NCBI GenBank assembly: GCA_041658725.1
Contig: JBAZZQ010000008.1
Coordinates: forward strand, 18,070 to 82,069
DNA from: Phycisphaerae bacterium
GTDB lineage: Bacteria > Planctomycetota > Phycisphaerae > JAAYCJ01
Direction: 5' to 3'
Length of the DNA stretch: 64,000 bases
Shown here: positions 34,039 through 60,138 of the stretch, piece after piece
Numbering within the stretch: the stretch's first letter is position 1
Layout: each line of letters begins with the position of its first letter
Translations under genes and position numbers: made by a program
The notes under the pieces: generated by a model
The model's database searches: none
What the model was told of the DNA's origin: nothing
The model's input: the letters and a program-made list of their open reading frames with translations, nothing else

Positions 34039-34070
34039 GCGATATCGGTGGTGAACAAGGGGCATCCATA

Positions 34071-34940: not shown

Positions 34941-34981
34941 AAATATTTTGTTCCCGTATTGGTGAAAGGCTGGACGTGGGA

Positions 34982-36124
34982 CTATATTCTTTTATCTCCC
35001 TGTGCCAATTTCACCATCGTCTGATAATTCGCCAATGTTTGAGCGGTAATCGTTCTGCCGTAGGGTGAGGCAGACGGCATCAAAACGAATCCTCGGCCCT
35101 TGCCATCGGTCCCTTCGCGCAGAGCCTTTTCAACCTTTTTCTGAAATTCCTCGGTAGCAAGGTTTTCAATATCCGCGATCTCGATATTTCCAAACAGGAC
35201 CATGTCCCGGCCGTATTGTCGGCGAACATCGATCAATTCCATGTCGCCCTGATCCGGCGGCTCGATCGGGTCCAGGCCATCGGGTTTGATGGCGGTGATA
35301 TGCGGCAAAATATTCCGCAACCGTCCGTGCGAATGAAGCCGGGCGTAACCGCCGTGCCGTTGGATCATCTTCACCATCGGTCCGGTGTACGTGACGACAT
35401 ATTCCTCAAACAGGCGGGGAGGCAGATAAGGTTCCGCGGCATATTCCGGCCCGTAGATTCGCCACAGTCGGCCGGGGAACTCCCGAGCTACGATTTCGGT
35501 GGTGCGATGGATATCACGGGCACATTTCCGCAGCATTTGATGAAACAACTCCGGCTCGGTCAAGGCCAGGATCGTATAATCCTCCATTGAAAACTGGCTG
35601 GCCGCTTGGCAGATCGGATCACCGGTATCCACCATAACGATACCAGCCTCACCGAGGTCTTTTTCCAGTTCAAACAGATTCGAGCAATCGACCGTGTGGT
35701 CGAATATCTCATCCGGAAGTTTCAGGTACGCTCGCAGATCGTCCGCACTTTTCAACAAGTGTTCAATCACCCAGACGGTGTCCACCTCCGCATCCCGCCG
35801 AGTCACCTGCGTCAACGTCCGGCCCGCCGCCATCACCTGTGTCCGGGTAAACCGCGATTGTCCCTCCTCCCATGTTTTAAGTGAAAAATATTTTTCTCGG
35901 TATTCCGGATGAGCGAAACGCATAATTGGAGCGCCTGCGCGAATGACGTCGGTGTGGTTTTCCGCCAAGTCCAGCAAAGGCCGCCACGACGGGTCATTAT
36001 AAATATTGTAAGAGTCCGGGTCGTCCGGGTTGTGTTTACGGAAAGTGATCTCGTAGAAATTTACCGCCGGCCGGTCCACCGGCTCTCCTCGCAATGTCGC
36101 CATCAATCGTTCACGTCGTGTCAT
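34982..36124 (-). CDS. Uroporphyrinogen decarboxylase (URO-D) family protein
   Basis: The N-terminus MTRRERLMATLRGEPVDRPAV is the classical URO-D start. Length 380 aa. Confidence 0.7.
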   Translation of the reverse strand: MTRRERLMATLRGEPVDRPAVNFYEITFRKHNPDDPDSYNIYNDPSWRPLLDLAENHTDVIRAGAPIMRFAHPEYREKYFSLKTWEEGQSRFTRTQVMAAGRTLTQVTRRDAEVDTVWVIEHLLKSADDLRAYLKLPDEIFDHTVDCSNLFELEKDLGEAGIVMVDTGDPICQAASQFSMEDYTILALTEPELFHQMLRKCARDIHRTTEIVAREFPGRLWRIYGPEYAAEPYLPPRLFEEYVVTYTGPMVKMIQRHGGYARLHSHGRLRNILPHITAIKPDGLDPIEPPDQGDMELIDVRRQYGRDMVLFGNIEIADIENLATEEFQKKVEKALREGTDGKGRGFVLMPSASPYGRTITAQTLANYQTMVKLAQGDKRI

Positions 36125-36155
36125 TATGTCTCCTTATGTGGATGATCCCGCAATA

Positions 36156-37124
36156 TTAAAACCACCAGGCCTGATCGGTCTTTTCGCGAATGACGACGGT
36201 TCTCAAATAGTTGACCGCTTTCTCGAAACCCTCCTGAGCGCTCATCAGGCCGTCTTCGTGTTCGATGCTGAGCACACCGTCGTATCCTTTGGCTCGGAGC
36301 ATGGAGATGAAGGGTTTCCAGAATTCGTCACCGTGCCCATAACCCACCGTTCGAAAAACCCAGCTTCGTTCGTCGATCCTGCCGTAACTTTTGGTATCGA
36401 GGTTGCCGTTGACTTTCGAGTTCGAGGGATCGATGTAGGTGTCCTTGGCATGAACGTGCCAGAGACACTTGGCGTCACCGAGGGTCCGAACGGATTCGAC
36501 GGGGTCGATCCCCTGCCAGAAAAAATGGCTGGGGTCGAAATTGGCCCCGATTTGTTTGCCGCATTCCTTTCTCAGCCGCAGAAGGGTTTCGGTATTGTAA
36601 ACGCAGAAACCGGGATGGGCTTCAAAGGCCAGCTTGACCCCGTTGTCAGCGGCGAGTTTATTCTGTCGGGTCCAGAACGGAACTAAAACGTCATTCCATT
36701 GGTATTCCAGTATCTTGGCATAATCGTCGGGCCATGGGCAGGTGACCCAGTTGGGTGTCTTGTCGCCTTTTTTCCCCGCTGGGCAACCGCTGAAATTGAT
36801 GACCACATTCGTTCCGAGTTTTGGCGCGAGTTTGACGGCGACTTCGTGCTGCCGGGTATGGAGTTTGGCAATGGCTCCGTCGGGATGCACGGGATTTCCA
36901 TGCACCGCCAGCGCCGAGACGACCAGGCCTCGCTGCTTAATAGCGTCTTTGATCTGACCCTGACGACCGATGTCGGCCAAAATCTCTTCGGGATCGAAAA
37001 AGGGCTGGCCAGGATATGCGCCCACCGGAAGCTCGATGGCCTCCAGACCCAGATGCCGGCAGTAATCCAAGGCTTTATCAAATCCCATCGCACCCAGCCC
37101 GGTCCCCATGACTCCGATTTTCAT
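36156..37124 (-). CDS. Sugar phosphate isomerase/epimerase (xylose-isomerase-like TIM barrel)
   Basis: MKIGVMGTGLG...LGLEAIEL and the conserved E/H/D metal ligands (FEAHPG, WHVHAKD). The start was chosen at the internal ATG 37122-37124. Confidence 0.7.
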   Translation of the reverse strand: MKIGVMGTGLGAMGFDKALDYCRHLGLEAIELPVGAYPGQPFFDPEEILADIGRQGQIKDAIKQRGLVVSALAVHGNPVHPDGAIAKLHTRQHEVAVKLAPKLGTNVVINFSGCPAGKKGDKTPNWVTCPWPDDYAKILEYQWNDVLVPFWTRQNKLAADNGVKLAFEAHPGFCVYNTETLLRLRKECGKQIGANFDPSHFFWQGIDPVESVRTLGDAKCLWHVHAKDTYIDPSNSKVNGNLDTKSYGRIDERSWVFRTVGYGHGDEFWKPFISMLRAKGYDGVLSIEHEDGLMSAQEGFEKAVNYLRTVVIREKTDQAWWF

Positions 37125-37510
37125 TTTTTGTCCTCTTAAAGCTAAACCTGATTTTACACATAGCTTGACGTTTCCCTCAAAATAACAACCCATACGGCAG
37201 TTGGGAAAGAGAAATTTCCCGCCGCCGCTACGTTTCTTTGTAAAATATCCGCTGGAGCAAGTTAGGACTCCAAAAAAAAGCGATAAAGGCAAGCTGTGTA
37301 TCCCACAAATAAGGATTCGTGCACTTATGAATTTAATGGCTGCTTATTTTTCCGAAGGACATCTGAGGACAACATCTACAATTAGGTTTTGACATGAATT
37401 AAGGCCATTGTTATAATTCCGAACATTGAGACCCAAATAACATGGATTTGGGTTGAGTGTACGGAAATGCTTTGAAAAAAATAACCTAAGTTCGTATTGC
37501 ATAATGTGTT

Positions 37511-37584
37511 GGCCGTGTAGCTCAGATGGTTAGAGCATGGGATTCATAAACCCAAGGTCGTCAGTTCGATTCTGACCGCGGCCA
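37511..37584 (+). tRNA. tRNA-Met (anticodon CAU). G1-C72 is paired, so it is elongator Met or tRNA-Ile2(k2CAU). The 3' CCA is not encoded.
   Basis: The cloverleaf was checked by hand. Acceptor GGCCGTG/CGCGGCC. D-arm GCTC/GAGC. Anticodon loop TTCATAA with U33 and A37. T-arm GTCAG-TTCGATT-CTGAC. Confidence 0.85.
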
Positions 37585-37595
37585 TTTGTAAGTTG

Positions 37596-37850
37596 CTAAT
37601 TGTCAATAGGTTCTGACAGAAACACTTCTGTCGGTTGAGTGGCGGAAGGCTCGCGTAACAAATGTGTAACAGAAATGTTTTCCAGGGATTTCCTGGTTGC
37701 CTCACGCGTTCGCTCCAACAGATCATCACTGACGGCAAGATAGAAGGTTCGAGTGGTCTCAAAACTGGCATGACCTGCCATTCGCATGACGTCCAACTCC
37801 CGCAACCCGTGGGAAAGCCAATTGCTGAGGCCTGCTCGACGTTCACTCAC
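37596..37850 (-). pseudogene. Truncated tyrosine recombinase/phage integrase (C-terminal ~84 aa only), adjacent to the tRNA-Met 3' end.
   Basis: It has box II HGLRE (HxLR) and the catalytic Tyr context GHASFETTRTFYLAVSDD. The N-terminal ~250 aa are absent, and upstream frames contain stops. Confidence 0.6.
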
Positions 37851-38026
37851 GTTACGGCCTGCGCACTCGCCAAGTGACTTTGCATCACCCTCTACCCCGG
37901 AGGCTCCAACGACGGGATTACTCCCGACATTGCTCCGATTGCTACCGGCAGGAGCGAAAGTTGCCGGGTGGGACTTGCACCCACTGAAGTTCTACGCCGT
38001 TCCACGGCGCACTGAAAAATACGGGT

Positions 38027-38410
38027 TAAACTATAAATTATAGAAATTTCTCTTCCAGTACGGCCTTCTGCCTCATTCGTAGCTCAAGCAGGCAACGGTG
38101 GGATTTTTTTGAAGCCGGTTTGTCGAAGGTACTTTTCGGTTCGGTGGTGCATTTTTTGGGCGTTTTTTTTAGTATGATCGTCGTAGTGGGTTAAATGCAA
38201 AAGGCCGTGGGTGATATAAAGGGCCAGTTCGGCGGCGGGGTTGGTTTTGAGTTTTCGGGCTTGCTCGCGGGCAAGTTGGGAGTTGGCGATGATCTGGCCA
38301 ATCAATTCGGACCCTGTATCGCTAAGGTCAAAGGCAAAAACATCGGTCCGGTACCGCCGACGCGCATATTTTTCGGCATAGTCGGCCATTCGTTTGTCGC
38401 CCACAATGGC
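38027..38410. repeat. Copy A of a ~384-bp segment (ybeY 3' two-thirds plus 57 bp downstream) duplicated in inverted orientation at 47407-47788
   Basis: Near-identical nucleotide and protein sequence (IVGDKRMADYAEKYARRRYRTDVFAFDLSDTGSELIGQII...) on the opposite strand 9 kb away. Confidence 0.8.
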
Positions 38411-38536
38411 GATGGAAATTTCGGCGTGGGGGATTTTTTCGCCTTTAAGAATAAGAGCGGCCAGGCGCAAAATTTTCTTTTCACCAAGCGGCAAAAGGCG
38501 GACGAATTTTTTTATGGAAATCCGGTATGGTTTCAT
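38084..38536 (-). CDS. ybeY: rRNA maturation endoribonuclease YbeY
   Basis: H3xH5xH zinc motif ITHGLLHLTHYDDH. Length 150 aa. The ybeY-pgpH-phoH neighbourhood is conserved. Confidence 0.85.
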   Translation of the reverse strand: MKPYRISIKKFVRLLPLGEKKILRLAALILKGEKIPHAEISIAIVGDKRMADYAEKYARRRYRTDVFAFDLSDTGSELIGQIIANSQLAREQARKLKTNPAAELALYITHGLLHLTHYDDHTKKNAQKMHHRTEKYLRQTGFKKIPPLPA

Positions 38537-38542
38537 AATTCT

Positions 38543-40819
38543 TCAGATACCGGTAGCCACTTTTGTGGAGGTGATGGTTTCATCGGGAGAGGCGGAGGGC
38601 GTTTGGGAAGGATATGCGATCCGGCTGTGATAGAAGCCGCTGAGACTCTTAGTCAGACTGTCCTCGACGGCGTGCAATTCACGCAGGGTAATGTCGCAAT
38701 TGTCAAACTGTCCGTCTTCGAGGCGTTTTTCGACGATCTGATGGACGATGGTTTCAATACGTCCCATCGTAGGTTCCGCCAGGGATCGTGCGGCGCTTTC
38801 GACCCCGTCGGCAAGCATGACGATGGCGATTTCCTTGCTATATGGTTTTGGGCCCGGATAACGAAAGGCCACATCCAGAGCTTCCTTGTCGCTTTCCGGC
38901 TGCTGGACGGCCTTGTTGTAGAAGTATTCGATCAGGGTCGTGCCATGATGCTCGGCGATAAATCGAGTGATGACGTTAGGCAAACCATATTCCTGGGCAA
39001 GTTCCAAGCCGTCTTTGACATGTCCGATGATGATCAGCATGCTCATGGCGGGCGAGAGACCTTTATGCCGGGTAATGACATTTCCCGGCTGGTTTTCCAC
39101 GAAATATTTTGGTTTGTTGATTTTTCCAATATCGTGATAGTAGGACCCTGCCCGTGCCAGCAGTCCGTTGGCACCAATGGCGTCGGCGGCGGCTTCGGCG
39201 AGCGATCCGATAAGGAGCGAATGACTGAAGGTGCCGGGCGCTTCGAGGGTCAATTTTCGAAGGAGCGGTTTACTGGCGTCGCACCATTCGAGAAGGGTCA
39301 TACTGGTGGCGATCTGGAAAAGTCTTTCGATCACGGGCAAAAGACCCTGAACCACCAACCCCGCCGCCAGGGCCCCCCCTGCCGCGGACATGGCGCTTTT
39401 GAGGATATATTTTACTTCCTGATAATCGGCCAGTTGCGAGGCCCAGACCACGGCAAAGGCCATCAGCGCGGCGGCGGAGGCGATTTCGATGAGTTTGGAC
39501 CGGCTTCGAATCTCTTCGAGGGTCAGAACCACCGTCGCTCCACCGGCAAGCAGGGTAAGGAGCAGACTGACGTTTCCATTCAGGGTAATCATCAACAGGC
39601 AGACCAGGGCGGTCATCACCACGAGGGCAAATCGATGGTCATAAGCAATGCTCATCACCATCGCCAGCAAAACAACCTCAAAAACGGTCCCGTAACTATT
39701 CCATCCACCCAGGTCCATGATACGGGCCATAGCGACCATGGCGAATAAGGATAGAGCGAGCACCGAAGCCCTGGACCAGTTATGGATCGCTTTCCGCTGG
39801 AATCTGGCACAATAAACCCACAAGGAAACACTGATCACTACTACAAGCATAGCAATGCCGGCCTCGGCCAAAAGTTTTTCGCGTGGATTAATCGAATTCC
39901 AGTAGGCCTTGTTTTCCATTTCCAGCAGTTGGACTTCGCGTTTATCGATCTCCTGATCTTGCTTGACAAGCAAACTTCCAGGTTCAAATTTTCGGAAAAC
40001 CCTATTGGCCTCCGAATCGAAACGGGTCTGCCGCTGTTTATCGGTGGCGGCTTTGTCAAAAAGCCAGATGGGTTTGAAATTTTCCTTCAGATACCGCTCG
40101 ACGACGGGCTGAAAACCCAAAGGCAGGACCTGGATAGTTCGGGCAAGAAAGGCATTTACTTTCTCGCTGTCCGTATCGAAGATCCATTGATCGGTTTGCC
40201 GTGGGATTTTAGTTTCCGGATTAACAAGCACAACGGTATTTGCCTTGCGGTATTCTTCGGGAATCACCTCGATGCTGTTTCCGGCGGCGAGGGAAGTTTT
40301 CAGTTTTCGCACGGACTTTTGAAATTCCTCCGGTGATATCTTGGAAATAAATTGTCGAAGGTCGTTAAAATTTTGAGCGTTGATATGCCACGTTTTTTCG
40401 AAGACCAGCTTTTTGGCTGTCGGCAAGTCGCTGTGCTGCTTGATGGCTTTAAGATCGTTGTAAAAAAGGGTCAGGTCCTGATCGACCTGCTCCAGAAACA
40501 CCTTATTCGGAAGATAATAATTCGGGGTGGACTGCCGAGCCTGCTCCTGGGCTTTGGCCGTCGCTTGTTCGTCGAATTCCTGAAACTCGGCACGGACACG
40601 AATATCCTGCCGCGGCTTTTGACCGATCCCCCACGGCATGACCTGTCCGCCGATCACAATCACTCCGCTGGTGATGCACACGAAAATAATTCCGATCACA
40701 ATACCCCAGGGAGAAATGCGATGGCGAATTTTCTCCATGGCGCCCTGCGATCGCAGAGATGGGGTGCGTTTAAGCTCGTTCTTGTTTTTTTTATTAAAAA
40801 ACCACATAATGCTACGCAT
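38543..40819 (-). CDS. 7TM-receptor HD-domain phosphohydrolase (PgpH/YqfF-like, 7TMR-HDED + HD)
   Basis: Extracellular N-domain, 7 TM helices, and a C-terminal HD domain (HDIGKINKPKYF, IAEHHG). Confidence 0.8.
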   Translation of the reverse strand: MRSIMWFFNKKNKNELKRTPSLRSQGAMEKIRHRISPWGIVIGIIFVCITSGVIVIGGQVMPWGIGQKPRQDIRVRAEFQEFDEQATAKAQEQARQSTPNYYLPNKVFLEQVDQDLTLFYNDLKAIKQHSDLPTAKKLVFEKTWHINAQNFNDLRQFISKISPEEFQKSVRKLKTSLAAGNSIEVIPEEYRKANTVVLVNPETKIPRQTDQWIFDTDSEKVNAFLARTIQVLPLGFQPVVERYLKENFKPIWLFDKAATDKQRQTRFDSEANRVFRKFEPGSLLVKQDQEIDKREVQLLEMENKAYWNSINPREKLLAEAGIAMLVVVISVSLWVYCARFQRKAIHNWSRASVLALSLFAMVAMARIMDLGGWNSYGTVFEVVLLAMVMSIAYDHRFALVVMTALVCLLMITLNGNVSLLLTLLAGGATVVLTLEEIRSRSKLIEIASAAALMAFAVVWASQLADYQEVKYILKSAMSAAGGALAAGLVVQGLLPVIERLFQIATSMTLLEWCDASKPLLRKLTLEAPGTFSHSLLIGSLAEAAADAIGANGLLARAGSYYHDIGKINKPKYFVENQPGNVITRHKGLSPAMSMLIIIGHVKDGLELAQEYGLPNVITRFIAEHHGTTLIEYFYNKAVQQPESDKEALDVAFRYPGPKPYSKEIAIVMLADGVESAARSLAEPTMGRIETIVHQIVEKRLEDGQFDNCDITLRELHAVEDSLTKSLSGFYHSRIAYPSQTPSASPDETITSTKVATGI

Positions 40820-40924
40820 AAATGACTAAATCCTAATGACGAATGTCTAATCAATGACTAAGCCCTAATGTCTAAAAGGATTTGGTCATTAGACATTACT
40901 TCGTCATTAGTCATTAGGATTTAG

Positions 40925-41938
40925 TCATTTCCTTTTTCCATTTCCACCGTATGCCTCAACTATAGTTTGGACGAGTCGATGACGAACGATATCCACTCCG
41001 GTGAGGCGAACCACGCCGATGCCCTTGACACCACCGAGTTTCCTGACGGCATCGACCAGTCCGGACTGATCCGGGCGTTCCAGATCGACCTGCGTGTCGT
41101 CTCCGGTGACTACCATCTTAGAATGATGTCCAAGCCGCGTCAAGAACATGAGCATTTGGGAGGCGGTGGTGTTCTGAGCCTCATCCATGATAATCGCGGC
41201 ATTATTCAGGGTTCTTCCTCGCATGTAGGCCAGTGGAATTACCTCGATCAAATCGTTCATCATAAAACGTTTGAGCTGATCGAACCCCATCATTTCTTGC
41301 ATGGCATCGAAGAGAGGCCGCAGATACGGATTCACTTTCGCCTGCAGATCGCCGGGAAGATAACCAAGTTTTTCTCCTGCCTCCACGGCGGGTCTGACCA
41401 GGACAATCCGTTTAATGACTCCTTGTTTAAGCGAGGAAACCGCCATCGCCACAGCGAGATAGGTTTTACCCGTTCCGGCGGGACCCAGACAAAAGACAAG
41501 ATCGTTATTGGCGATGGACCGGATATACTCCGCCTGGCCGGGTGTTTTCGGGATAATTTTGACTCCCCTGGTAAAGACCTCGATCGTTTCTGTAACAATT
41601 TCCCCTTTGCCCTGCGATTTTTCCTCTTCAATTGCAGGTTCCAGGGAGGCCAAGGCTTCGTGAACGTCGGCCACGTCCAACTGGTCGCTATCAAGAAGCA
41701 TCTGCTGCATCCGCTCGATGACGGAGGCGGTCTTGCCCACCGCTTCGGCGCGACCACAGAGTTTTACCGAACTATCTCTCGCCACCACCTGAACGTCGAA
41801 CATTTCCCGCAGGATCCGCAAATTTTTGTCATTGGGTCCAAAAAGGGCTGTTCGATGGGCGTGGGGCTGTAATGTTATCGTTAAATCCAATTCGGACTCT
41901 CCTGCGTTTATAAAATGTATTTTAGCGCCAGATACCAT
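40925..41938 (-). CDS. phoH: PhoH-like ATPase
   Basis: Walker A GPAGTGKTYLAVAMAV and the PhoH core. An N-terminal KH-like region is present. Confidence 0.9.
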   Translation of the reverse strand: MVSGAKIHFINAGESELDLTITLQPHAHRTALFGPNDKNLRILREMFDVQVVARDSSVKLCGRAEAVGKTASVIERMQQMLLDSDQLDVADVHEALASLEPAIEEEKSQGKGEIVTETIEVFTRGVKIIPKTPGQAEYIRSIANNDLVFCLGPAGTGKTYLAVAMAVSSLKQGVIKRIVLVRPAVEAGEKLGYLPGDLQAKVNPYLRPLFDAMQEMMGFDQLKRFMMNDLIEVIPLAYMRGRTLNNAAIIMDEAQNTTASQMLMFLTRLGHHSKMVVTGDDTQVDLERPDQSGLVDAVRKLGGVKGIGVVRLTGVDIVRHRLVQTIVEAYGGNGKRK

Positions 41939-42798
41939 ACAAATCCAGTCGGCAGGAGCGAATCGACCAGATCGAGCACTCCTCCGAACTCTGGAAGAAG
42001 ACGGGCGGAATCTTTAACTTGGGCGTCGCGTTTAAGGAGCGATTCGGTCAAATCGCCGAGATGACCGATCACCGCGAACCCGATTCCGATTAAAATGAAA
42101 TGAAAAACGCTCAAACCTGCCAGAACTGAATGGTCTCGGAACAGAGGCGAAAGTCCCAGCCCGGTGGTGACCAGACTGGAAAAAATAATCGCGCCCAAAA
42201 GTCCCTCGACGGTTTTGCCCGGCGAGAGCCAGGGAATGAGCTTGTGTTTTCCCAAGGCCATTCCGGTGAAGTAGGCCCCGATGTCGGAACATTTGACCGC
42301 CGCGATCAGAAGGATAACGGGTCCTGGGCCGAACTGGGTACGAAGGGCGACAAAGTAAGACAGGAACAAACCCATGTAGATGAGAGCGAACAAAGACCAA
42401 GCCAGATTAGCGCCCGCCCCTTCGGTTTGCCGTCGCAGCATCTGACCGATGACAAAGAAGAAAAAGAAGGCGGCGATAAGAATTAATTCGTTCGGAGCGG
42501 CTTGCCAAACACTCAGGTAGGGTTGAATGGTCAACATGACCGATCCGACGATAATGAGTGGGGTCAGGGGTTTGGCCCCGGTTTGACGGGCCAGATAAAT
42601 CGTCTCCAGGCTCCCAGCCAGTCCGAGCAGGGCGGCCAGAACCGTGACGATCAGGCCGTACCCAAGAAAAACCGTGGCCGTGGAGGGACTCCGCAGCATA
42701 CGATAAAAAAAGAAAAAATCCAACGCCATCAGACCCGCCAGGATCAGGATCATCAGGCCGCCGAAGAGAACTCTCGTTTTTACGGATTTTTGTGCCAT
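41908..42798 (-). CDS. cdsA: Phosphatidate cytidylyltransferase (CDP-diglyceride synthase) family
   Basis: Polytopic membrane protein with a divergent C-terminal CTP-transferase signature (SLLKRDAQVKDSARLLPEFGGVLDLVDS; the canonical form is GHGGxxDRxDS). It lies next to uppS. The start is at the internal ATG 42796-42798. Confidence 0.65.
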   Translation of the reverse strand: MAQKSVKTRVLFGGLMILILAGLMALDFFFFYRMLRSPSTATVFLGYGLIVTVLAALLGLAGSLETIYLARQTGAKPLTPLIIVGSVMLTIQPYLSVWQAAPNELILIAAFFFFFVIGQMLRRQTEGAGANLAWSLFALIYMGLFLSYFVALRTQFGPGPVILLIAAVKCSDIGAYFTGMALGKHKLIPWLSPGKTVEGLLGAIIFSSLVTTGLGLSPLFRDHSVLAGLSVFHFILIGIGFAVIGHLGDLTESLLKRDAQVKDSARLLPEFGGVLDLVDSLLPTGFVWYLALKYIL

Positions 42799-42888
42799 GA
42801 TTGTTTTATCGGGAACTATTTTACTCGTTTGCGATTGGAAATTAAAGACCTTAGTGGTTATATATACATTTTTAAAAAGGAACGTTCT

Positions 42889-44043
42889 ATGACTAATCGA
42901 CAACGAGCCATGGCGATTCTTCGGTATCAGGCTTACGACCGTCTTGCGATCGTCAATTTTGGATATTGGCGAGAGACGCTGCAGAAATGGGCTGCCGAGG
43001 GACATTTGAGCGACGCGGAGGCCCTCTCGTGGGCTGACGGTAATCCGACAGATGCAGCCATTTCCCAGAAACTGGGTTTTGATTTCAACTGGTATAGCAC
43101 CTTTACTCCCTGCATCAGTTTGAACCCGATTTTCGAATCCAGGGTGATTAAAGAATTTCCCGACGGTTCGCAGCATGTGCTTAATGGTGAGGGGGTGATC
43201 GTTCTTTCCAAACCGGGCGCGGGCTCGATCCCGGCGGAAATCCAACACACCCTGGTAGATCGTGCCTCTTGGGAAGAACATTATAAATGGCGATTTCAAT
43301 TTTCCCCACAGCGGATCACAACCGCTTTGGTTCGCATCGGCGATACCATGATCCCCTTCGATCAGGGCGGACTAAAATTTCTTCAAACCGACGAGCGGGA
43401 TTATCCCTACGGCCTCTTTTGCGGCAGCCTTTACGGCCAGATTCGTAATATTCTCGGGGTGGAAGGGTCGTGTTATTTGATGATGGACGACGAAGACCTA
43501 TTCGATGAAATCATTAGAACGGTCGGGGAGTTGAGCTATCAGGTGGCTAAATTCGTTCTGGAATCAGGAGCGAAGTTCGATTTCGCTCATTTCTGGGAAG
43601 ATATCTGCTTTAAAAACGGACCCCTGATCACACCGGGGGTTTTTGATGAAAAGGTCGGTCCGCACTACAAACGCATTACCGATCTTTTGAAAACCTACGG
43701 AATTGATATTGTTTCCCTGGACTGCGACGGCAAAATCGACGCCTTGATTCCCACCTGGTTCAACAACGGAGTGAACACCATGTTCCCGATCGAGGTCGGG
43801 ACGTGGAACGCGAGCATCAAACCGTGGCGAGACCTGTACGGCAAGAATCTACGCGGGGTCGGTGGTATGAATAAAACGGTGTTTGCCCGTGACCGGTCCA
43901 CCGTCGATGAAGAAATTGAACGATTAAAACTCCTGGTCGAGCTGGGTGGTTTTATACCCTGCCCCGATCATCGAATCGCCCCCGACGCGAAATGGGATTT
44001 GGTTCGATATTATTGCGACCGGATGAGGAAGGTCTGCTGCTAA
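42889..44043 (+). CDS. URO-D-like family protein
   Basis: The N-terminus MTNRQRAMAILRYQAYDRLAI is URO-D-like. RBS aaaaagga. The longer listed ORF is an upstream read-through that overlaps cdsA. Confidence 0.6.
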   Translation: MTNRQRAMAILRYQAYDRLAIVNFGYWRETLQKWAAEGHLSDAEALSWADGNPTDAAISQKLGFDFNWYSTFTPCISLNPIFESRVIKEFPDGSQHVLNGEGVIVLSKPGAGSIPAEIQHTLVDRASWEEHYKWRFQFSPQRITTALVRIGDTMIPFDQGGLKFLQTDERDYPYGLFCGSLYGQIRNILGVEGSCYLMMDDEDLFDEIIRTVGELSYQVAKFVLESGAKFDFAHFWEDICFKNGPLITPGVFDEKVGPHYKRITDLLKTYGIDIVSLDCDGKIDALIPTWFNNGVNTMFPIEVGTWNASIKPWRDLYGKNLRGVGGMNKTVFARDRSTVDEEIERLKLLVELGGFIPCPDHRIAPDAKWDLVRYYCDRMRKVCC

Positions 44044-44070
44044 TACGCCAAAAACGCACACAATGTGTCT

Positions 44071-44829
44071 CTATAGCTTAGTGCTGATGGCGCCGAATTT
44101 TCTTTCCCGCTGGACGTAGTCCTGGATGGCACGGTGAAGATGGTCTTCGGAAAAATCGGGCCAGCAGTCTTTTTCCACGTAGAACTCCGTGTAGGCCAAC
44201 TGCCAGAGAAGGAAATTGCTCAATCGCCGCTCCCCGGCGGTGCGGATAATCAAATCCGGATCGGGCATGCCGGCTGTGTAGAGATGATCGCCGATCAACG
44301 TCTCGGTTACTTCTTCGCCCGAAAGTTCCTTTCGAGCGATTTTTTGGGCAATGACCTGCATTGCATCGGTGATTTCGACGCGGGAAGAATAATTTAACGC
44401 CAGGGAAAGGATCAGGCCTTTATTCCCGGCAGTGGCGGCCATGGTCTCGGTCAGCCGCTGCTGAACGGATTCGGGCAATCCGGTCATTCGGCCCAGGTGC
44501 CGAAGTTTGACCTCAAGGGACATCATTTCCGGCAATTCATGTGCCAGATATTCGGCGCAGAGCTGCATGAGAAATTCCACTTCCTCCCGCGGACGTTTCC
44601 AGTTTTCCATGCTAAAGGAATAGAGCGTGAGGTATCCGATTCCGAGTTTGGAGCATTCGGTGACCATCTTGCGCACGACTTTAGCGCCCTGCCGATGGCC
44701 TTCGATGCGAGGCAGATTTTTCCACTGGGCCCATCGGCCGTTACCGTCCATGATCATGGCGATATGTTTCGGCAACTGCTGAGGTTTTAACCCCAAAAGA
44801 CTTTCGATGTCATGTAATATTACGGGCAT
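44071..44829 (-). CDS. uppS: Isoprenyl transferase (undecaprenyl pyrophosphate synthase)
   Basis: IAMIMDGNGRWA, plus the RTAGERRLSNFLLWQ...YTEFY hallmarks of cis-prenyltransferases. Confidence 0.9.
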   Translation of the reverse strand: MPVILHDIESLLGLKPQQLPKHIAMIMDGNGRWAQWKNLPRIEGHRQGAKVVRKMVTECSKLGIGYLTLYSFSMENWKRPREEVEFLMQLCAEYLAHELPEMMSLEVKLRHLGRMTGLPESVQQRLTETMAATAGNKGLILSLALNYSSRVEITDAMQVIAQKIARKELSGEEVTETLIGDHLYTAGMPDPDLIIRTAGERRLSNFLLWQLAYTEFYVEKDCWPDFSEDHLHRAIQDYVQRERKFGAISTKL

Positions 44830-44848
44830 TTTTGCTTTCCATTTTTTG

Positions 44849-45361
44849 AACCACAGAGATCACAGAGATCACAGAGAAAATCATAAGACATCTATACATA
44901 AATCATTCCGGCTTAATCCCCTTTATGTTAGAATAATCCGTTTGATTCCATCGACGAGCATTGGGACGTTAAAGTTAATCAATAGCCCAAGTTGTTTTCC
45001 CGTGGCTTTGAGATAGGAAAGCACTTGAGCGGAATGAATAGGGGCAAGTTCCTTTGTTGCCTTTATTTCAAGGATAAGAGCATCTTCGATTAAAAAATCC
45101 AACCGATGCTCTCCGACACATTCGTTTTTGTAATGGATTTTCACCGGTGCCTGACGGATAAAAGAAATTTCTTTCAATCGAAGTTCCACACATAGCGATT
45201 CTTCGTAAATGGTCTCTAAAAATCCCGGCCCAATTACTCGATGCACCTCAATAGCAGTGCTAATGACAGAATGAGAAAGGCTATTGAGACCATTACTGAA
45301 GGTATTTTGCCTATTATTCATAAACATTTCTTTCTCTGTGTTCTCTGCGATCTCTGTGGTT
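44849..45361. mobile_element. TIR-flanked cassette of ~513 bp carrying a GxxExxY gene. The 30-bp terminal inverted repeats are built from CACAGAGAT tandem units.
   Basis: Left end 44849-44880 aaccacagagatcacagagatcacagagaaaa. The reverse complement of the right end (45331-45361) is aaccacagagatcgcagagaacacagagaaa. Confidence 0.45.
44923..45327 (-). CDS. GxxExxY family protein (PD-(D/E)XK nuclease superfamily)
   Basis: GPGFLETIYEESL contains the G-x-x-E-x-x-Y signature, with a downstream D...E.K (LIEDALILEIKA). Confidence 0.75.
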   Translation of the reverse strand: MFMNNRQNTFSNGLNSLSHSVISTAIEVHRVIGPGFLETIYEESLCVELRLKEISFIRQAPVKIHYKNECVGEHRLDFLIEDALILEIKATKELAPIHSAQVLSYLKATGKQLGLLINFNVPMLVDGIKRIILT

Positions 45362-45374
45362 TAAACCTCTTTTA

Positions 45375-46727
45375 TTATATTTTTATCGCTACCGTTTGGT
45401 CGCGTTCCGGGCCTACGCTGGCCAATTTGATCGGGCAATTCAGCAGTTCCTGAAGCCGGCGCAGATATTTGACCGCGCCGGTCGGTAATTGATTTTGCTC
45501 TTTGGCGGCGGTGATATCCTCGGTCCAGCCCGGAATCTCCTCATAGACAATCTCAACTTTTTCAAGAATATGGCTATCGGTGGGGAAAAAATCGAGGGGT
45601 TTTCCGTCCACTTTATATTGGACCGCGATCTTGATCGGGTCCAGTCCGCTTAATACGTCCAAAAGCATAACCGCCAGGGAATTGATTCCGCCGATCATGA
45701 TGGAATATTTTACAGCCACGGCGTCGAACCAGCCGGTGCGTCTCGGTCGGCCGGTCGTCGTGCCGTATTCCTTGCCCCTAACGCGAATGCCTTCGCCGAT
45801 GTCATTTTTCAATTCAGTGGGGAAAGGACCGGCTCCCACGCGGGTGGTGTAGGCTTTGATGATCCCGAGGTAGCTGTGGACCAGAGCGGCAGGTACGCCC
45901 GTGCCCGCTGAAAGTCCGCAGGGGCCGGAGTTGGAGCTGGTTACGTAAGGATAGGTCCCGTGATCGAGGTCCAAGAGCGCGCCCTGGGCGCCTTCAAACA
46001 TGATCCGCTTGCCCTGGTGAAGATTGCGGTGGAGCAGTTCCGCCGTATCACAGACGTAGGGTTTAAGTTCGTCGGCGTAATTACAAAACTGGTCGTAAAT
46101 TTCCTTCCAGTTCAGTTCGGCCGCGCCATAGAGGGCTTGGAAAATTTTGTTTTTATCGGCAACGATCCGCTGGAGTTTTTCCGCGAAATGCTTTTTATCG
46201 TAAAGCTCGCCCAGCCGGATACCGTAACTGCGATAAGCCTTATCGGCGTAGCAGGGACCGATTCCCCGGCAGGTGGTTCCGAGTGAATTTCCGGCGAGTT
46301 GTTTTTCACTGAGCTGGTCCTGGAGTTTATGGTAAGGGAATACCACGTGAGCCTTGCTGGAGATTTTCAGGTTCTCCGCCACTTTGACGTTACGGCTTTT
46401 TAAGGTTTTAATTTCCTCCAGGACGACCTGCGGATCGAGGACGACCCCGTTGGCGATGACCGCGGTGGCCGTAGGGGAGAGGATGCCCGAAGGGACCAGG
46501 TGCATGGCGAATTTTTCCTTGCCGATGACCACGGAATGACCCGCGTTGGCCCCTCCGCTGTACCGGACAACCAGGTCGAATAATCCCGCCGGTCCGCCCG
46601 GATCGGTCAGGAGGTTGACAATTTTACCCTTGCCCTCGTCGCCCCATTGAAGCCCGACCACACATACATTTCCCGGCAAATCTATTTTCATTACTTGTTG
46701 TCCCTGCGTTTTTAACATAGCGAACAT
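45375..46727 (-). CDS. purA: Adenylosuccinate synthetase
   Basis: P-loop GLQWGDEGKGKIVNLL and TTCRGIGP. The GTP/IMP binding motifs are collinear with PurA. The start may be the internal Met at 46691. Confidence 0.9.
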   Translation of the reverse strand: MFAMLKTQGQQVMKIDLPGNVCVVGLQWGDEGKGKIVNLLTDPGGPAGLFDLVVRYSGGANAGHSVVIGKEKFAMHLVPSGILSPTATAVIANGVVLDPQVVLEEIKTLKSRNVKVAENLKISSKAHVVFPYHKLQDQLSEKQLAGNSLGTTCRGIGPCYADKAYRSYGIRLGELYDKKHFAEKLQRIVADKNKIFQALYGAAELNWKEIYDQFCNYADELKPYVCDTAELLHRNLHQGKRIMFEGAQGALLDLDHGTYPYVTSSNSGPCGLSAGTGVPAALVHSYLGIIKAYTTRVGAGPFPTELKNDIGEGIRVRGKEYGTTTGRPRRTGWFDAVAVKYSIMIGGINSLAVMLLDVLSGLDPIKIAVQYKVDGKPLDFFPTDSHILEKVEIVYEEIPGWTEDITAAKEQNQLPTGAVKYLRRLQELLNCPIKLASVGPERDQTVAIKI

Positions 46728-46733
46728 AGAAAA

Positions 46734-46760
46734 AGTCAGCCCTTCGGCTGACTAGGAACC
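46734..46760. other. Perfect 7-bp-stem hairpin (GTCAGCC-CTTC-GGCTGAC) immediately upstream of purA
   Basis: Seen directly in the sequence. The tetraloop is CTTC. Confidence 0.4.
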
Positions 46761-47151
46761 AGAATTACCAACAGGATATCCTAGCTTGTTTCTCGGACTA
46801 ATTCAAGTCTTTCGCCAAATCAAAAGAGGGCCGCCTCCTGCGGGTGTCTGACTAATTTTTCTGGCCACCCCTCCCCTGTCATCGTCCGGCTTGACCGGAC
46901 GATCCAGTATTCTTCTCTGTTCGTAAACTTTTCCCGTATATTTCATAAATGGAAAACCCCTGGATTCCCGCCTGCGCGGGAATGACAGCCTGTTTTGGCC
47001 TTGCCGGGATTTTTAGTCACACGCGGGATTACAAGACAAAGTAACCCCTCAGTTTTTCATGGGCTGGAAAAATGTCTGATTTTTCATAAATTGCTGTTTT
47101 TTTCTTCTTCCCTGTGGTAAAGAGGTAACGAACGACACAGGGACGTAAAAG

Positions 47152-47676
47152 ATGGCGTGCATGGAATGCTACAAACGACAGCTTCGGATCAATGAGCTTG
47201 AGGATGAATTGTCTCAGGCCAAGGCGAAGCTGCGGTATCAGGAACGGACGGCCAAGGAAGGGCCGTTCAAGAGTTCCACGCCCAGCTCAAAGATTCCGAT
47301 CAAGCTCAACACCTTGTCGGAACGTCAGGCGAAAAAAGGCGGGGGCAAACTCGGGCATAAAGGTTATGGCCGCTCCGCCATGTCGCCGGACCAAGCGGAT
47401 CGAGACGAGATCGTGGGCGACAAACGAATGGCCGACTATGCTGAAAAATATGCGCGTCGGCGGTACCGGACCGATGTTTTTGCCTTTGACCTTAGCGATA
47501 CAGGGTCCGAATTGATTGGCCAGATCATCGTCAACTCCCAACTTGCCCGCGAGCAAGCCCGAAAACTCAAAACCAACCCCGCCGCCGAACTGGCCCTTTA
47601 TATCACCCACGGCCTTTTGCATTTAACCCACTACGACAATCATACTAAAAAAAACGCCCAAAAAATGCACCACTGA
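47152..47676 (+). pseudogene. Chimeric pseudogene. An IS66-family transposase N-terminal fragment (~86 aa) is fused to an inverted duplicate of the ybeY C-terminal two-thirds, with a premature stop.
   Basis: The N-terminal part LRYQERTAKEGPFKSSTPSSK...KKGGGKLGHKGYGRS matches the IS66 TnpC motifs (RxQxFGxSSEK; PGGQPGHKGHGR). The remainder is 95% identical to YbeY residues 44-130. A CGA-to-TGA change creates the stop. Confidence 0.55.
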
Positions 47677-47788
47677 ACCGAAAAGTACCTTCGACAAACC
47701 GGCTTCAAAAAAATCCCACCGTTGCCTGCTTGAGCTACGAATGAGGCAGAAGGCCGTACTGGAAGAGAAATTTCTATAATTTATAGTT
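47407..47788. repeat. Copy B (inverted) of the ybeY-3' duplicated segment
   Basis: Reverse complement of 38027-38410 with a few substitutions. Identity ends at TTTAA / cccgt versus agtat. Confidence 0.8.
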
Positions 47789-47910
47789 TAAAGTATTTTT
47801 CTCATCCGTTTATCTGCCATGTTAAAAAACAAACCTCAAAAATTCATATAACCTCTTGCATAATGACTAAAAGGGATGTATACTATAGTTAGCAATAAGG
47901 AGCTGGTTTT

Positions 47911-48772
47911 CATGACATTTACATTCGATGAAATAAAAAAATGCTTAGGGAAGCCTTTTTATGAGACAACAGATTGTATGATCTTTTGTGCCGAATGTTT
48001 GGAAATGATGGCGAAATTAACATGTCCCTTAATTGATTTGACGGTTACAAGCCCTCCTTATAACATCGGCAAAGAATATGAAAAACAAATGCCAATAGAG
48101 GAATATATCGAATGGTGTATGTCTTGGATAATGGAAATACATCGTGTCACAAAACCAAACGGATCATTATGGGTGAATGTGGGATATCTTGAGATTCCCG
48201 GAAAGGCAAAAGCGTTGCCTATTCCTTATTTGCTATGGGACAAAACCCCGTTTTATTTAATTCAGGAGATCGTTTGGAATTATGGGGCGGGCGTGGCAGG
48301 CAAAAAATTTTTTTCGCCTCGAAATGAAAAGTTTTTGTGGTATGTGAAAGATAGCTTTAACTTTACCTATAATCTGGACGAGATCAGAGATAAAAACGTT
48401 AAATATCCCCATCAAAAAAAGAACGGGAAACTGAAATGCAATCCTCTCGGAAAAAACCCGACCGATGTATGGTATATTCCCAAGGTGACCTCGGGAAAAA
48501 ATCGAAGTTCCAGGGAAAGAACGGCCCATCCCGCGCAATTTCCTTTTGCCCTCATCGAGCGAGTTGTCAAAGCTTCAAGTAATAAAAATGATTTAATTCT
48601 GGATCCTTTTTTAGGTTCAGGGACCGCGGCGGTTGTCGCTCTAGCCAACGAAAGAAAATTTATTGGGTTTGAAATTCAAGAACGGTATTGTGAAATAGCG
48701 GCCAAAAGGATTACAAAATATATGGAAAAGGTAAACGAGCCTACCTTATTCAGCTTGGTACAGAACGTCTAA
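47911..48772 (+). CDS. Beta-class DNA methyltransferase of a Type II R-M system. It is probably N4-cytosine (SPPY), possibly N6-adenine.
   Basis: Motif IV DLTVTSPPYN comes before motif I DPFLGSGTAAVVA, which gives the beta-class order. An in-frame upstream Met at 47876 is possible. Confidence 0.8.
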
Positions 48773-49339
48773 TTTGTAATTCTCAACATTACCGCTTAAT
48801 CTTGCCTGCTGTCCCGTAGGTGCTTTCTGTCCCAGCCAATCTTCAGAATCCAGCCATCCAAATTTAATTTTAACTATTTTAGGTTTTGGCCGATTTTCTT
48901 CACATTTTTCAAAGTTCACGGTAAGGTAATAACCAGATTTGCTTTTTCTACCTTTTGCTGTTTCTTGAGCATAACTTCGATTGCCAAAAATACTTTTTGG
49001 ATTAGAGGAGGTTTTGATTTCGATGGAAAATTTATCATCAGGAATAAAAATTAGGTCTTTATCTTTCGCGGAGTTTTCTTTCCTCCATTGTTTCGGATAT
49101 CTTCGCACAAATTCAAGAGGTATGATTTCATGAAGAAAGAATCCCAAAATCTGAGGTTTGGGCAAGATATCCTTTCCAATTAAATACGGCTTGCTACCAA
49201 TTTTGGAATGGAAAATTTCTTCCCACGACCATAATACCACCTCTTTGATTTCTTCGGGAGAAAGAAAATGTTCGGATATCAATCTTTGTGTAATTCCGAA
49301 CCATTTATCGACAGGTTTATTCTGATAAGGAGAAACCAT
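48746..49339 (-). CDS. Putative Type II restriction endonuclease (PD-(D/E)XK)
   Basis: IFIPDDKFSIEIKTS is a candidate PD...ExK catalytic core. The gene is convergent with, and overlaps, the methyltransferase. It sits directly downstream of a C-protein gene. Confidence 0.55.
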   Translation of the reverse strand: MVSPYQNKPVDKWFGITQRLISEHFLSPEEIKEVVLWSWEEIFHSKIGSKPYLIGKDILPKPQILGFFLHEIIPLEFVRRYPKQWRKENSAKDKDLIFIPDDKFSIEIKTSSNPKSIFGNRSYAQETAKGRKSKSGYYLTVNFEKCEENRPKPKIVKIKFGWLDSEDWLGQKAPTGQQARLSGNVENYKLDVLYQAE

Positions 49340-49561
49340 TTAATTATCCAAGAGGTCACAAATTTTCACGTTGAGTGCCTTTGCAATTTTCTCGATGTTT
49401 TCCAAGGTTATATTTTTTTCCGCTCTTTCAATCATCCCGATATAAGTACGGTGAACACCCGCTCTTGCCGCAAACTCCTCTTGAGAGAGATTTAATCTGT
49501 TGCGTTCATTCCGCACCCTTTGTCCAAATTTAAGTAAAATAGCTTTCGCCATAATCCACAC
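49340..49561 (-). CDS. Controller (C) protein of the R-M system, XRE-family HTH
   Basis: LSQEEFAARAGVHRTYIGMIERAEKNITLENIEKIAKALNV closely resembles C.PvuII-type C proteins. Its stop abuts the REase start. Confidence 0.65.
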   Translation of the reverse strand: MWIMAKAILLKFGQRVRNERNRLNLSQEEFAARAGVHRTYIGMIERAEKNITLENIEKIAKALNVKICDLLDN

Positions 49562-49828
49562 TTTCGTAACAGCAAACTATAACTATTTGAAAACTTTAAT
49601 TCTACATACTAAAGGTAGCAAATTGGGGTTGATTTACATTAGCGAAGACAACGTCATTTGGGGTTCATTCCTCGATTCGAGGCTAAATTGTCCACGGTAC
49701 ACTGTTGGCCAAACGGTTACTCAATTTCATTAAAGAACATGAATAAGGAACGATTTATAACTGTTTTAGCCCAAAGATTGCGGATAAAATGCTCTTGCGT
49801 TAAGACGATTCATTTTTATATTAAGGGC

Positions 49829-50647
49829 ATGAAGATGACGCCAGGGAGTCAGGAAAGAAGCTTTGCCGGTTTGATCATCGGTATTATGGTCGGCATTTTA
49901 GGTATCAATGCCCACGCCGATGCCCTGGTTATTGTTATTACCGCTGAAGACATCCATTTAAGCAGTGATTTGTTGGGTAACCCTTTGGAGTTTCCAGGCT
50001 GGCCTCCTTCACAGGGGCGATCCTGGCAAACGACCTTCAACCTTCCTTTCTCGCCGACAGGGAATTCATCTCTAACCATGGATCTTTACGATGTTGATCT
50101 GGCTACAGACATCTTCTATCTGAACGATTTCTTCGCTTACCTTCCTACTTGTCCAGAGCCATTTTATACATGGTATACGAGGGCCTTTACGATTCCATCC
50201 GTTGCTCTCAGGCAAGGGGAAAACGCGTTTCTTATTCAAACCGCTTCAAATGGCACTTCTTATGAACATATCCGGTTCCGCAACGTTGTTTTGAGTGTTG
50301 ACTTACCCGGCGACGTTGATAAAGATGGCCAAGTGGATGCGACAGATCTGGATATTGGGGTAGTTAATCTGGATAAATCATCCGGCGATAGCGGCTGGGA
50401 TAGTCGAGCCGATCTGGACAGCGATGGCGAAGTGACCAGCACGGACCTGTCAATTGTGTTGGCGAATATGCCTTTACCCGGCGACGTTAATAAGGATGGC
50501 AAGGTGGACGAGGCCGACTTGTCGATCATCCTGTCGGTGATGGACTCTACGCCTGCTGATTCGAACTGGGATGCTCGAGCGGATTTGGACACCGATGACG
50601 AAGTTACCTCCACGGATATCTCGATGGTGTTGGATAATATGAATTGA
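49829..50647 (+). CDS. Secreted protein with a tandem double dockerin module at the C-terminus
   Basis: The signal/TM is MKMTPGSQERSFAGLIIGIMVGILGINAHA. The C-terminus has four dockerin repeats (DVDKDGQVDATDL...DLDSDGEVTSTDLSIVL...DVNKDGKVDEADLSIIL...DLDTDDEVTSTDISMVLDNM). The start could also be at 49685. Confidence 0.65.
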   Translation: MKMTPGSQERSFAGLIIGIMVGILGINAHADALVIVITAEDIHLSSDLLGNPLEFPGWPPSQGRSWQTTFNLPFSPTGNSSLTMDLYDVDLATDIFYLNDFFAYLPTCPEPFYTWYTRAFTIPSVALRQGENAFLIQTASNGTSYEHIRFRNVVLSVDLPGDVDKDGQVDATDLDIGVVNLDKSSGDSGWDSRADLDSDGEVTSTDLSIVLANMPLPGDVNKDGKVDEADLSIILSVMDSTPADSNWDARADLDTDDEVTSTDISMVLDNMN

Positions 50648-50683: not shown

Positions 50684-51235
50684 TTGGTCAAGTCTTACTA
50701 TTTAAAGACCGATAATCATGTAAACGGGCTTATTTTGCCCGATGTTTTTTTTGCGCTTGGAAACCTAGAAATGACCGATGCCGATACGTTAGCTGAATTG
50801 GAAAACGCGGTGGAAACGTCTGACCCGACCCAGATGCCGGCGGATGCCGTTTCTCCCCAGGCACAGGAACCTACACCGAGCGTCGAATCGGCGCATCCGC
50901 ATTTTCCGGTTACCCATATCAATCCGGCACTGGTGGAGCCGGCGTCTAAGGATCTGAAATTACCGGATACCCCCCAAATGCGAAGAATTCGGCAAGTGGA
51001 AGTCCCGATTATCGTACGATTGGCTCATAAGATTATGCCGCTGGGGGAAATTATGCAGTTGGCCCCTGGGGCGATTATTGAATTCAATAAAGTGGTTGGG
51101 GACAATTTGGATTTAATGATCAACAATAAAGGGATCGGCGGCGGTCAGGCGGTGAAGGTTGGGGAAAAGTTCGGCTTGCGGGTAACGAATCTGACGACGC
51201 TGGATCAAATGATTTTGGCCATGGCGGGGAAATAA
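50684..51235 (+). CDS. FliN/YscQ-like SpoA-domain protein (flagellar motor switch / T3SS C-ring family). The start is uncertain and may be at Met 50770.
   Basis: The C-terminal VEVPIIVRLAHKIMPLGEIMQLAPGAIIEFNKVVGDNLDLMINNKGIGGGQAVKVGEKFGLRVTNL matches the FliN SpoA domain. Confidence 0.55.
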   Translation: MVKSYYLKTDNHVNGLILPDVFFALGNLEMTDADTLAELENAVETSDPTQMPADAVSPQAQEPTPSVESAHPHFPVTHINPALVEPASKDLKLPDTPQMRRIRQVEVPIIVRLAHKIMPLGEIMQLAPGAIIEFNKVVGDNLDLMINNKGIGGGQAVKVGEKFGLRVTNLTTLDQMILAMAGK

Positions 51236-60129: not shown

Positions 60130-60138
60130 GAGAATTAA

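Follow-up and report, generated by a model that had tools for sequence, protein, structure and literature searches.

A purA-to-ybeY block inverted between two copies of the ybeY 3′ end in a Phycisphaerae genome contig

Results

Two inverted copies of the ybeY 3′ end

We examined a 64-kb stretch of contig JBAZZQ010000008.1 (positions 18,070 to 82,069; GenBank assembly GCA_041658725.1) from a Phycisphaerae bacterium of the phylum Planctomycetota, referred to below as the window, in which a block of conserved housekeeping genes from purA to ybeY lies inverted relative to the gene order of its relatives and is bracketed by inverted copies of the 3′ part of ybeY. Our preferred reading, to which we give a little less than an even chance, is that a purA-to-ybeY inversion became fixed and that the segment beside one of its breakpoints was copied, in inverted orientation, to the other end, as in duplication associated with inversion. 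A preliminary description of the region had noted the duplicated segment, an observation that we confirm, and had interpreted it through IS66-associated recombination or inversion next to an eroded tRNA-integrated island, an interpretation that is partly supported.

The two copies were recovered as a long inverted repeat with arms of 395 nt each (38013–38407 and 47410–47804; complementarity 97%, separation 9002 nt) by a repeat search that, like the scans for the tRNA 3′ end and for Rfam introns, ran across the whole window; no second long dispersed repeat was found in the 64 kb. MAFFT alignment with per-base comparison defined a sharp core of 382 bp (38026–38407 vs. 47410–47791), ~99% identical, in which the copies differ at four internal positions and at one more at the inner junction and share a longest fully identical run of 117 nt. 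Alignment thus bore out the earlier claim that a ybeY 3′-end segment is present twice and inverted, moving its ends by 1–3 nt, and the 9002 nt between the arms hold the ~9 kb of core genes (ybeY, pgpH, phoH, cdsA, uppS and purA) that the copies had been said to bracket. Copy A (38026–38407, − strand) comprises codons 44–150 within an intact ybeY (38084–38536, −; Pfam YbeY, 7.8e-23) together with 58 nt of 3′ flank, and copy B (47410–47791, + strand) comprises the same codons and 58 nt of flank but carries R132stop, D120N and one synonymous change, as judged from the repeat, the alignment and comparison with outgroups.

All four internal differences between the copies are transitions. The difference at codon 54 is synonymous, while at codon 84 (A84V) outgroups have Val, making copy A derived (V84A) and copy B ancestral. 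Codon 120 (D120N) specifies an Asp that is near-invariant across the family, making copy B the derived state, and at codon 132 a TGA in copy B replaces CGA (at 47674), which is likewise derived relative to outgroups. Because each copy holds derived changes, copies A and B have been diverging independently for some time. Copy B behaves as a presumptive pseudogene, showing nonsense and missense decay against one change in the intact gene.

At the outer end of copy A, 12 nt (38014–38025, − strand) separate the repeat core from the 5′ end of a group II intron remnant, and ungapped extension of the arm runs to 38013. These 12 nt have GTATTTTTC in common with the flank of copy B, at a 2-nt offset, which suggests that they are probably both a diverged extension of the repeat arm and the 5′ exon of the intron. 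No hairpin or terminator was detected in this exon (z = 0.65).

Gene order in relatives and polarity of the inversion

The block comprises ybeY, pgpH, phoH, cdsA, a URO-D-like gene on the opposite strand, uppS, a GxxExxY gene and purA (38084–46727, − strand; open reading frames (ORFs) and Pfam), and the region upstream of purA (46728–47015, sequence reading) moves with it. A PgpH scan of species-representative genomes yielded 69 loci, and the order purA-uppS-cdsA-phoH-pgpH-ybeY was conserved and co-directional in ~35 Phycisphaerae/Sedimentisphaerales loci. The four closest relatives were a 7.7-kb contig of a metagenome-assembled genome (MAG; L001), a 241-kb NCBI contig (L078; PhoH 86% and PgpH 77% identical to the window proteins), a 236-kb JGI contig (L079) and a pair of Logan contigs (L080/L081). 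In all four, ybeY is followed by a same-strand FliMN_C (fliN-like) gene and then by a convergent gene for CCA-adding enzyme, with ybeY–fliN spacers of 87–295 bp that contain no restriction–modification (R-M) genes.

In the window, the fliN-like gene (50684–51235, +; NCBIfam fliN/SctQ), the ancestral right neighbour of ybeY by the order in relatives, and the CCA-adding enzyme gene (51273–52568, −; identified likewise) follow copy B on its right and keep the ancestral orientation, and the intact ybeY faces away from them. Since copy B stands beside these neighbours on the + strand, it is what remains of the ybeY 3′ end where ancestors carried it, in its ancestral orientation, and the inverted part is the intact block. 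Strand bias points the same way, with 7/8 block genes on the − strand and 75% of the coding bases outside the block on the + strand. The suggestion that the housekeeping block had been inverted was therefore upheld by synteny, as all four relatives show the ybeY-fliN-CCA order.

Flanks further out were less conserved. Comparison of the window ORFs with the 69 loci gave no common flanks outside the block, L001 excepted, and the L001 ybeY–fliN spacer was not alignable with the window DNA. A metagenome scan with the CCA enzyme returned relatives at 34–40% identity only, which was uninformative, and among relatives of the TIM-barrel neighbour of the tRNA-Met gene synteny was not conserved even at 77–81% identity, so that the ancestral left flank was not recovered.

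An IS66-type stub at the inner junction of copy B

Copy B is joined at its inner end to an IS66-type stub (47016–47409, +), consisting of a presumed left end, a leader and tnpC codons 1–86, as delimited from 42 protein homologs and alignments. Its left boundary is approximate and possibly lies at ~46900; DNA similarity to homologous loci starts near 47016. The fusion creates a chimeric ORF of 174 aa, TnpC(1–86)::YbeY(44–131) (47152–47676, +; ORF list, Pfam and base comparison), whose residues 87–173 match Pfam YbeY at 1e-17 and which an independent gene call gives as 171 aa (P0060). The in-frame fusion and its new stop at R132 had been described correctly, and the chimeric ORF is most likely a pseudogene.

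The identity of the N-terminal 86 aa as IS66-family sequence stood only indirectly. There was no direct match in Pfam, NCBIfam or PDB, and among the 42 homologs none exceeded 154 aa; yet the homologs continue into a CPxCG...C zinc finger exactly where the window switches to ybeY. One homolog (P0006, 31.2 bits) passed the zf-IS66 gathering score (27.3), two (P0008 and P0003) fell slightly under it, and one homolog is named ‘IS66 family transposase’ by NCBI. Calling the sequence an ‘IS66-type tnpC stub’ thus appears reasonable, with the zinc-finger link as its sole basis. No DDE domain was seen in the stub or in any of the 42 homologs, and the window contained no DDE_Tnp_IS66 domain, terminal inverted repeats or 8-bp target duplication; tblastn gave no match to a plasmid-borne relative of the stub. 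Solo short ORFs with the same N-terminus occur mid-contig in other Phycisphaerae (L071, 6001–6345; L073, 1045–1473; L074, 1058–1486), with no adjoining DDE ORF in L071 or in L073/L074, and either this insertion sequence (IS) family is nearly always broken or its N-terminal module is free-standing.

Integrase and group II intron remnants on the left flank

Outside copy A, the left flank begins with a tRNA gene with anticodon CAU, called Met (37510–37585, +; ARAGORN, Rfam tRNA 67.2 bits), presumably the site at which a now-decayed element had integrated. The 3′ end of the tRNA gene lies 10 nt from a recombinase gene, of which an 84-aa ORF (37596–37850, −) retains ~77–81 integrase-derived residues (37596–37841, −; homolog collection and alignment). 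This ORF had no direct match in Pfam, NCBIfam or PDB, and an exhaustive phmmer search returned 234 homologs; 10/10 of the long homologs tested were PF00589 tyrosine recombinases, to whose extreme C-termini (last ~80 residues) the stub aligns. The stub begins at the RR of the family HDLRRT box and retains the GH..T..Y box with the catalytic Tyr, while everything upstream of the HxLRR box is gone and with it the full R..HxxR..Y catalytic set. By its residues, the stub is a fragment of a PF00589 family member and would not be a functional one.

The earlier identification of a tRNA-Met(CAU) followed by the C-terminal 84 aa of an integrase was accordingly sound. Its extension to an eroded, tRNA-integrated island stood in part: the stub is real and fits an eroded element, but we found no cargo, and the tRNA 3′ 21-mer occurs once in the window even at ≤3 mismatches, leaving no attR.

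The ~170 bp separating the integrase stub from the repeat, previously taken for a spacer, proved to be 175 bp of a group II intron 5′ stub. Delimited by Rfam and plasmid alignments, the stub represents ~170–190 nt of a ~2-kb element (37824–38013, −). Positions 37847–37986 (−) match RF02003 (group-II-D1D4-4) over model positions 1–138 of 138 (100.3 bits, E 8e-22), and the intact intron 5′ end, GTGCG, lies at 38013, abutting the repeat arm. Sequences on 24 plasmids were 72–74% identical to 37842–38013 across 99% of its length, and in the Bradyrhizobium plasmid match ltrA, encoding the intron reverse transcriptase, begins 327 nt further on. Similarity to the full-length intron extends to ~37824–37830, into the first codons of the 84-aa ORF, which places the intron/integrase junction at ~37824–37841. 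The stub carries no reverse transcriptase, and domains V/VI were not found: Rfam gave no RF00029 or further intron match anywhere in the 64 kb, and sequence past ~37824 is integrase-derived. With the intron recognised, the region holds debris from at least four element types.

Origin of the layout

The end product fits the definition of DNA duplication associated with inversion, as it combines an inverted region with a second inverted copy at its other end. As outlined in a bioRxiv preprint (10.1101/2025.09.20.677491), in such an event a copy of a segment enters a distant locus in inverted orientation and the DNA between the two loci is inverted as well, and the outline attributes the outcome to staggered breaks followed by fill-in and rejoining. 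Applied to the window, an IS66-type element would have lain upstream of purA; one break would have fallen within its tnpC, at about codon 86, and a second, staggered break would have spanned the stretch between ybeY codon 43 and a point ≥70 nt downstream of the stop codon. Fill-in and rejoining would then have flipped ~9 kb, joining copy B in frame to the IS66 stub and supplying the relocated ybeY with a complete 3′ end of its own (copy A). A group II intron would later have inserted ~70 nt downstream of the relocated ybeY, in the outer arm, and one deletion, starting near intron nt 185 and stopping where the last ~77 codons of the integrase begin, would have removed the rest of the intron, the arm, the IS66 sequence and most of the integrase. 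Copy B would subsequently have decayed while the intact gene changed once, and a foreign ScaI-like R-M cassette with its controller (C) protein would have entered the old ybeY–fliN spacer before or after the inversion. This makes four events besides the R-M insertion.

Several points weigh against this reconstruction. Duplication of the breakpoint by itself predicts the remainder of the IS66 element beside copy A, where 12 nt and the intron are found instead, such that a later intron insertion and a deletion are needed to explain what is missing. The intron 5′ end falls 0–12 nt from the end of strong homology, which is a coincidence unless the arm was once longer, and the staggered breaks are themselves read back from the end product alone. 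Moreover, neither the tRNA-Met-side flank nor an IS66 element upstream of purA was present in any relative examined, so that the pre-inversion left junction was not recovered, and the YbeY proteins of the closest relatives are only 64–69% identical, with intermediate states unsampled.

Three other routes were considered and rejected. Replicative transposition of IS66 is not implicated, because the junction lies inside tnpC (~codon 86) and not at an IS end and because the window holds no second IS66 copy; the element appears to have been a passive breakpoint, with no demonstrated causal role. Recombination between two inverted intron copies would leave no copy B, and an island-borne 3′-gene fragment that restores its target on integration would produce direct repeats and would require an integrase next to copy B.

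The strongest competitor, although we judge it unlikely, is that the whole block and its flank were duplicated head to head, for instance by template switching of the tandem-inversion-duplication type, and then pruned by deletions, one from tnpC codon 87 to ybeY codon 43 that left copy B and a second that trimmed the intron–integrase end. This accounts exactly for the layout seen today, both the in-frame deletion junction IS66::ybeY and the relic left at the ancestral site. If the 5′ exon of the intron is arm sequence then the original arm exceeded 382 bp, as suits a larger duplication. It nevertheless takes one event more than duplication with inversion, no second-copy remnant of the other block genes was found, and no palindromic junction is visible upstream of purA.

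Slightly less probable again is a flip of the 9 kb by RecA between ybeY and a pre-existing inverted IS66–ybeY–flank–intron piece beside the tRNA-Met island, possibly derived from a related strain. Re-inverting the block in silico would restore the ancestral ybeY–spacer–fliN run and place the IS66, ybeY-fragment, intron and integrase stubs collinear on one strand beside the tRNA; 382 bp at ~99% identity are an ample substrate for homologous recombination, and ~1% divergence with derived changes in both copies fits an origin in another strain. Such a flip, however, leaves the origin of the fusion between the ybeY 3′ fragment and IS66 unexplained, is no more economical in events than the other models, and would have an opposite orientation that is seen in neither assembly.

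Assembly support and orientation

An exact-protein look-up recovered two contigs of a second assembly (European Nucleotide Archive (ENA) ERZ27247322) that match the window at 100% identity along 10.5 kb and 6.5 kb, respectively. The first (L070) corresponds to 38028–48536 and runs from the methyltransferase gene of the R-M cassette through copy B, the IS66 stub and the block to copy A, and the second (L082) corresponds to 31596–38111 and covers the left flank, the tRNA, the integrase and intron stubs and 85 nt of copy A. Between them, the two contigs contain each of the four unique junctions, with arm-specific mismatches as in the window, and they overlap solely in 38028–38111, within the 117-nt run that is identical between the arms, as in an ordinary repeat-induced break. 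The contig names indicate k = 141, and that both nonetheless end in 38028–38111 probably reflects coverage or the repeat; strain heterogeneity is possible there.

The 85.8-kb contig that contains the window and the two ENA contigs thus present one orientation in two assemblies, which gives no sign of an active switch. The preliminary description had raised the idea that the 9-kb block is an invertible segment, and at contig level this was not borne out. We consider it very improbable that the block inverts actively through the 382-bp arms, with both orientations in the population and perhaps an effect on the ybeY 3′ end. In its favour, the length and similarity of the arms suffice for recombination, the homology left by a duplication with inversion is described as promoting later recombination in the preprint outline (bioRxiv 10.1101/2025.09.20.677491), and the short-read assembly breaks within an arm. 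A break in a 117-nt identical stretch is, however, expected of any repeat, L070 shows a single orientation across copy B and the two inner junctions, and four fixed differences separate the arms, which speaks against exchange being frequent. Flipping would switch no promoter or gene, because the region upstream of purA moves with the block.

A related proposal, only marginally less improbable, is that the arms still recombine in a population that holds both orientations, and that the side of R132stop on which the crossover falls toggles between full-length YbeY and a 131-aa, C-terminally truncated form. If so, a flip would also swap the copy that lies beside the R-M cassette, and the arms would constitute a recombinational switch on an rRNA-maturation nuclease.

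Finally, that metagenomic reads were mis-joined to give this layout can be all but dismissed, since, although the source is a MAG and the short-read contigs terminate inside the repeat, two identical contigs from another assembly cover the four junctions and the arm-specific mismatches, the longest identical run is shorter than k = 141, such that orientation should be resolvable, and copy B shows decay of the pseudogene type.

The restriction–modification cassette and other features

A type II R-M cassette of 1.87 kb (47792–49657; Pfam, NCBIfam, PDB and GC content) lies just outside copy B. Its GC content is 0.374, compared with 0.502 for the window. The methyltransferase (MTase) gene (47876–48772, +) matches Pfam N6_N4_Mtase over profile positions 1–221 of 221 (7.6e-63) and encodes an SPPY motif, which is typical of N4-cytosine enzymes. 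The restriction endonuclease (REase) gene (48746–49339, −) matches Pfam RE_ScaI over positions 1–190 of 192 (1.6e-69), and the C protein (49340–49561, −; 70–73 aa, Pfam HTH_3) had as its top PDB matches C.AhdI (1.5e-12), C.BclI (2.7e-12) and C.Esp1396I (3.4e-6). The C gene lies directly upstream of the REase gene in the same direction, its stop codon abutting the REase start codon, and the MTase gene is convergent with this unit, the 3′ ends of the M and R genes overlapping by 27 bp. The module had been called a complete C-controlled type II system, and the full-length REase and MTase and the C.AhdI/C.BclI-like C protein agree with that call.

The absence of R-M genes from the ybeY–fliN spacer of all four relatives, together with the low GC content, marks the cassette as an insertion, and from its gene content and composition we regard it as complete, controller included, and foreign, placed in the old ybeY–fliN spacer. 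It had previously been proposed that the R-M system arrived on the now-decayed mobile element, but nothing links it to the tRNA-Met island: the cassette occupies the ancestral spacer, 9.9 kb from the tRNA. Matches to terminal repeats around the cassette were at noise level only, and the candidates for a C-box were just weak palindromes (4–5-bp arms) 20–49 nt upstream of the ATG of the C gene, none of them convincing. The ScaI site AGTACT occurred 0 times in the 64 kb against 2.6 expected, a difference that is not significant.

An AT-rich palindrome at the outer end of the copy B arm (47771–47789) resembles 49574–49592, just upstream of the C gene, over 19 nt (79% complementary, a noise-level match). 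Each lies upstream of one of the convergent M and C–R units, and the two could be candidate C-protein operators. If they were true operators, the outermost ~30 nt of the arm would be R-M DNA, and the duplication would be later than the arrival of the cassette.

Between the cassette and the fliN-like gene lies a gene for a dockerin-repeat protein (49658–50647, +; GC 0.469; Pfam Dockerin_1, 6.2e-15), which like the cassette is absent from the ybeY–fliN spacer of the relatives. Within the inverted block, the GxxExxY / PD-(D/E)XK_3 gene (44923–45327, −; TIGR04256, 4e-41; GC 0.39) lies between uppS and purA, and its region (44845–45365) is flanked by 35-nt inverted repeats rich in CACAGAGAT; as relatives have merely 9–240 bp at this site, it looks like a small inserted cassette. 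The URO-D-like gene (384 aa, 42883–44043) is 77–79% identical in L078 and L080 and is absent from more distant purA-uppS-cdsA arrangements. In the pgpH–phoH spacer, a 42-nt inverted repeat (40820–40861 / 40889–40930) is 86% complementary and AATGAC-rich.

Elsewhere in the window, an ORF at 12752–13894 contains 5–6 tandem copies of a 150-nt unit (62–89% identity) at 12920–13819 and probably encodes a repeat-domain protein. Two copies of a 56-nt direct repeat (20092–20147 and 60127–60182; 91% identical) lie 40 kb apart and could represent a dispersed intergenic element.

Discussion

The arrangement shares with duplication associated with inversion, as far as the preprint outline goes, a second inverted copy at a distant locus, inversion of the DNA in between, and a partial duplication of which one copy is decaying. 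It differs by its short span (9 kb), by having one breakpoint in an IS66 tnpC, by its occurrence in Phycisphaerae instead of Helicobacter, and by an opposite end that has been overwritten by intron insertion and deletion, where the pre-inversion left junction is not recovered. Inversions between inverted IS or rrn copies likewise have long, near-identical inverted arms at both ends of the inverted segment. Here, however, the arms are a fragment of a single-copy housekeeping gene, neither a mobile element nor a multicopy gene, and the repeat itself therefore needs explaining.

Roth and colleagues have reportedly found in Salmonella and Escherichia coli that tandem inversion duplications arise from template switching and are remodelled by deletions. 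The window resembles these in its inverted duplicated DNA and in junctions that later became asymmetric through deletions, but a third copy is lacking, and of the other block genes no second copy remains.

The element remnants each resemble a known system in part. As in eroded tRNA islands, a tyrosine-recombinase gene next to the tRNA 3′ end has been truncated to its C-terminus, whereas here there is neither an attR repeat nor cargo and the stub abuts a group II intron stub. That intron stub agrees with RF02003 introns in its GUGCG 5′ end, its full match to the D1–D4 model and its 72–74% identity to ltrA-bearing plasmid introns, but unlike complete group II introns it is reduced to ~170–190 nt lacking domain V/VI and reverse transcriptase. 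The IS66-type stub has the N-terminal coiled-coil region of TnpC, homologous to proteins that continue into zf-IS66, but only 86 codons are left and the DDE domain is missing. The R-M cassette follows the Esp1396I, AhdI and BclI systems in the co-directional placement of C directly upstream of the REase gene and in its convergent MTase gene, and its predicted REase matches the ScaI family nearly end to end; it departs from those three systems in having no convincing C-box and in its host, a Planctomycetota MAG.

For annotation, the 174-aa ‘YbeY’ and the 84-aa ORF should be treated with caution, since both are artefacts of junctions and the real ybeY is the relocated copy. More generally, a short inversion with a duplicated breakpoint, a type reported chiefly from Helicobacter and Drosophila, is recognisable in one Planctomycetota MAG contig, and its polarity becomes readable once the gene order of relatives is known. 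The region adds one clear, if unremarkable, case to a known class of rearrangement, in a phylum that has received little study, and it leaves the understanding of the systems involved unchanged. Four kinds of selfish element, an integrase, a group II intron, an IS66-type element and an R-M cassette, have left their traces in the ~12 kb around a conserved essential operon.

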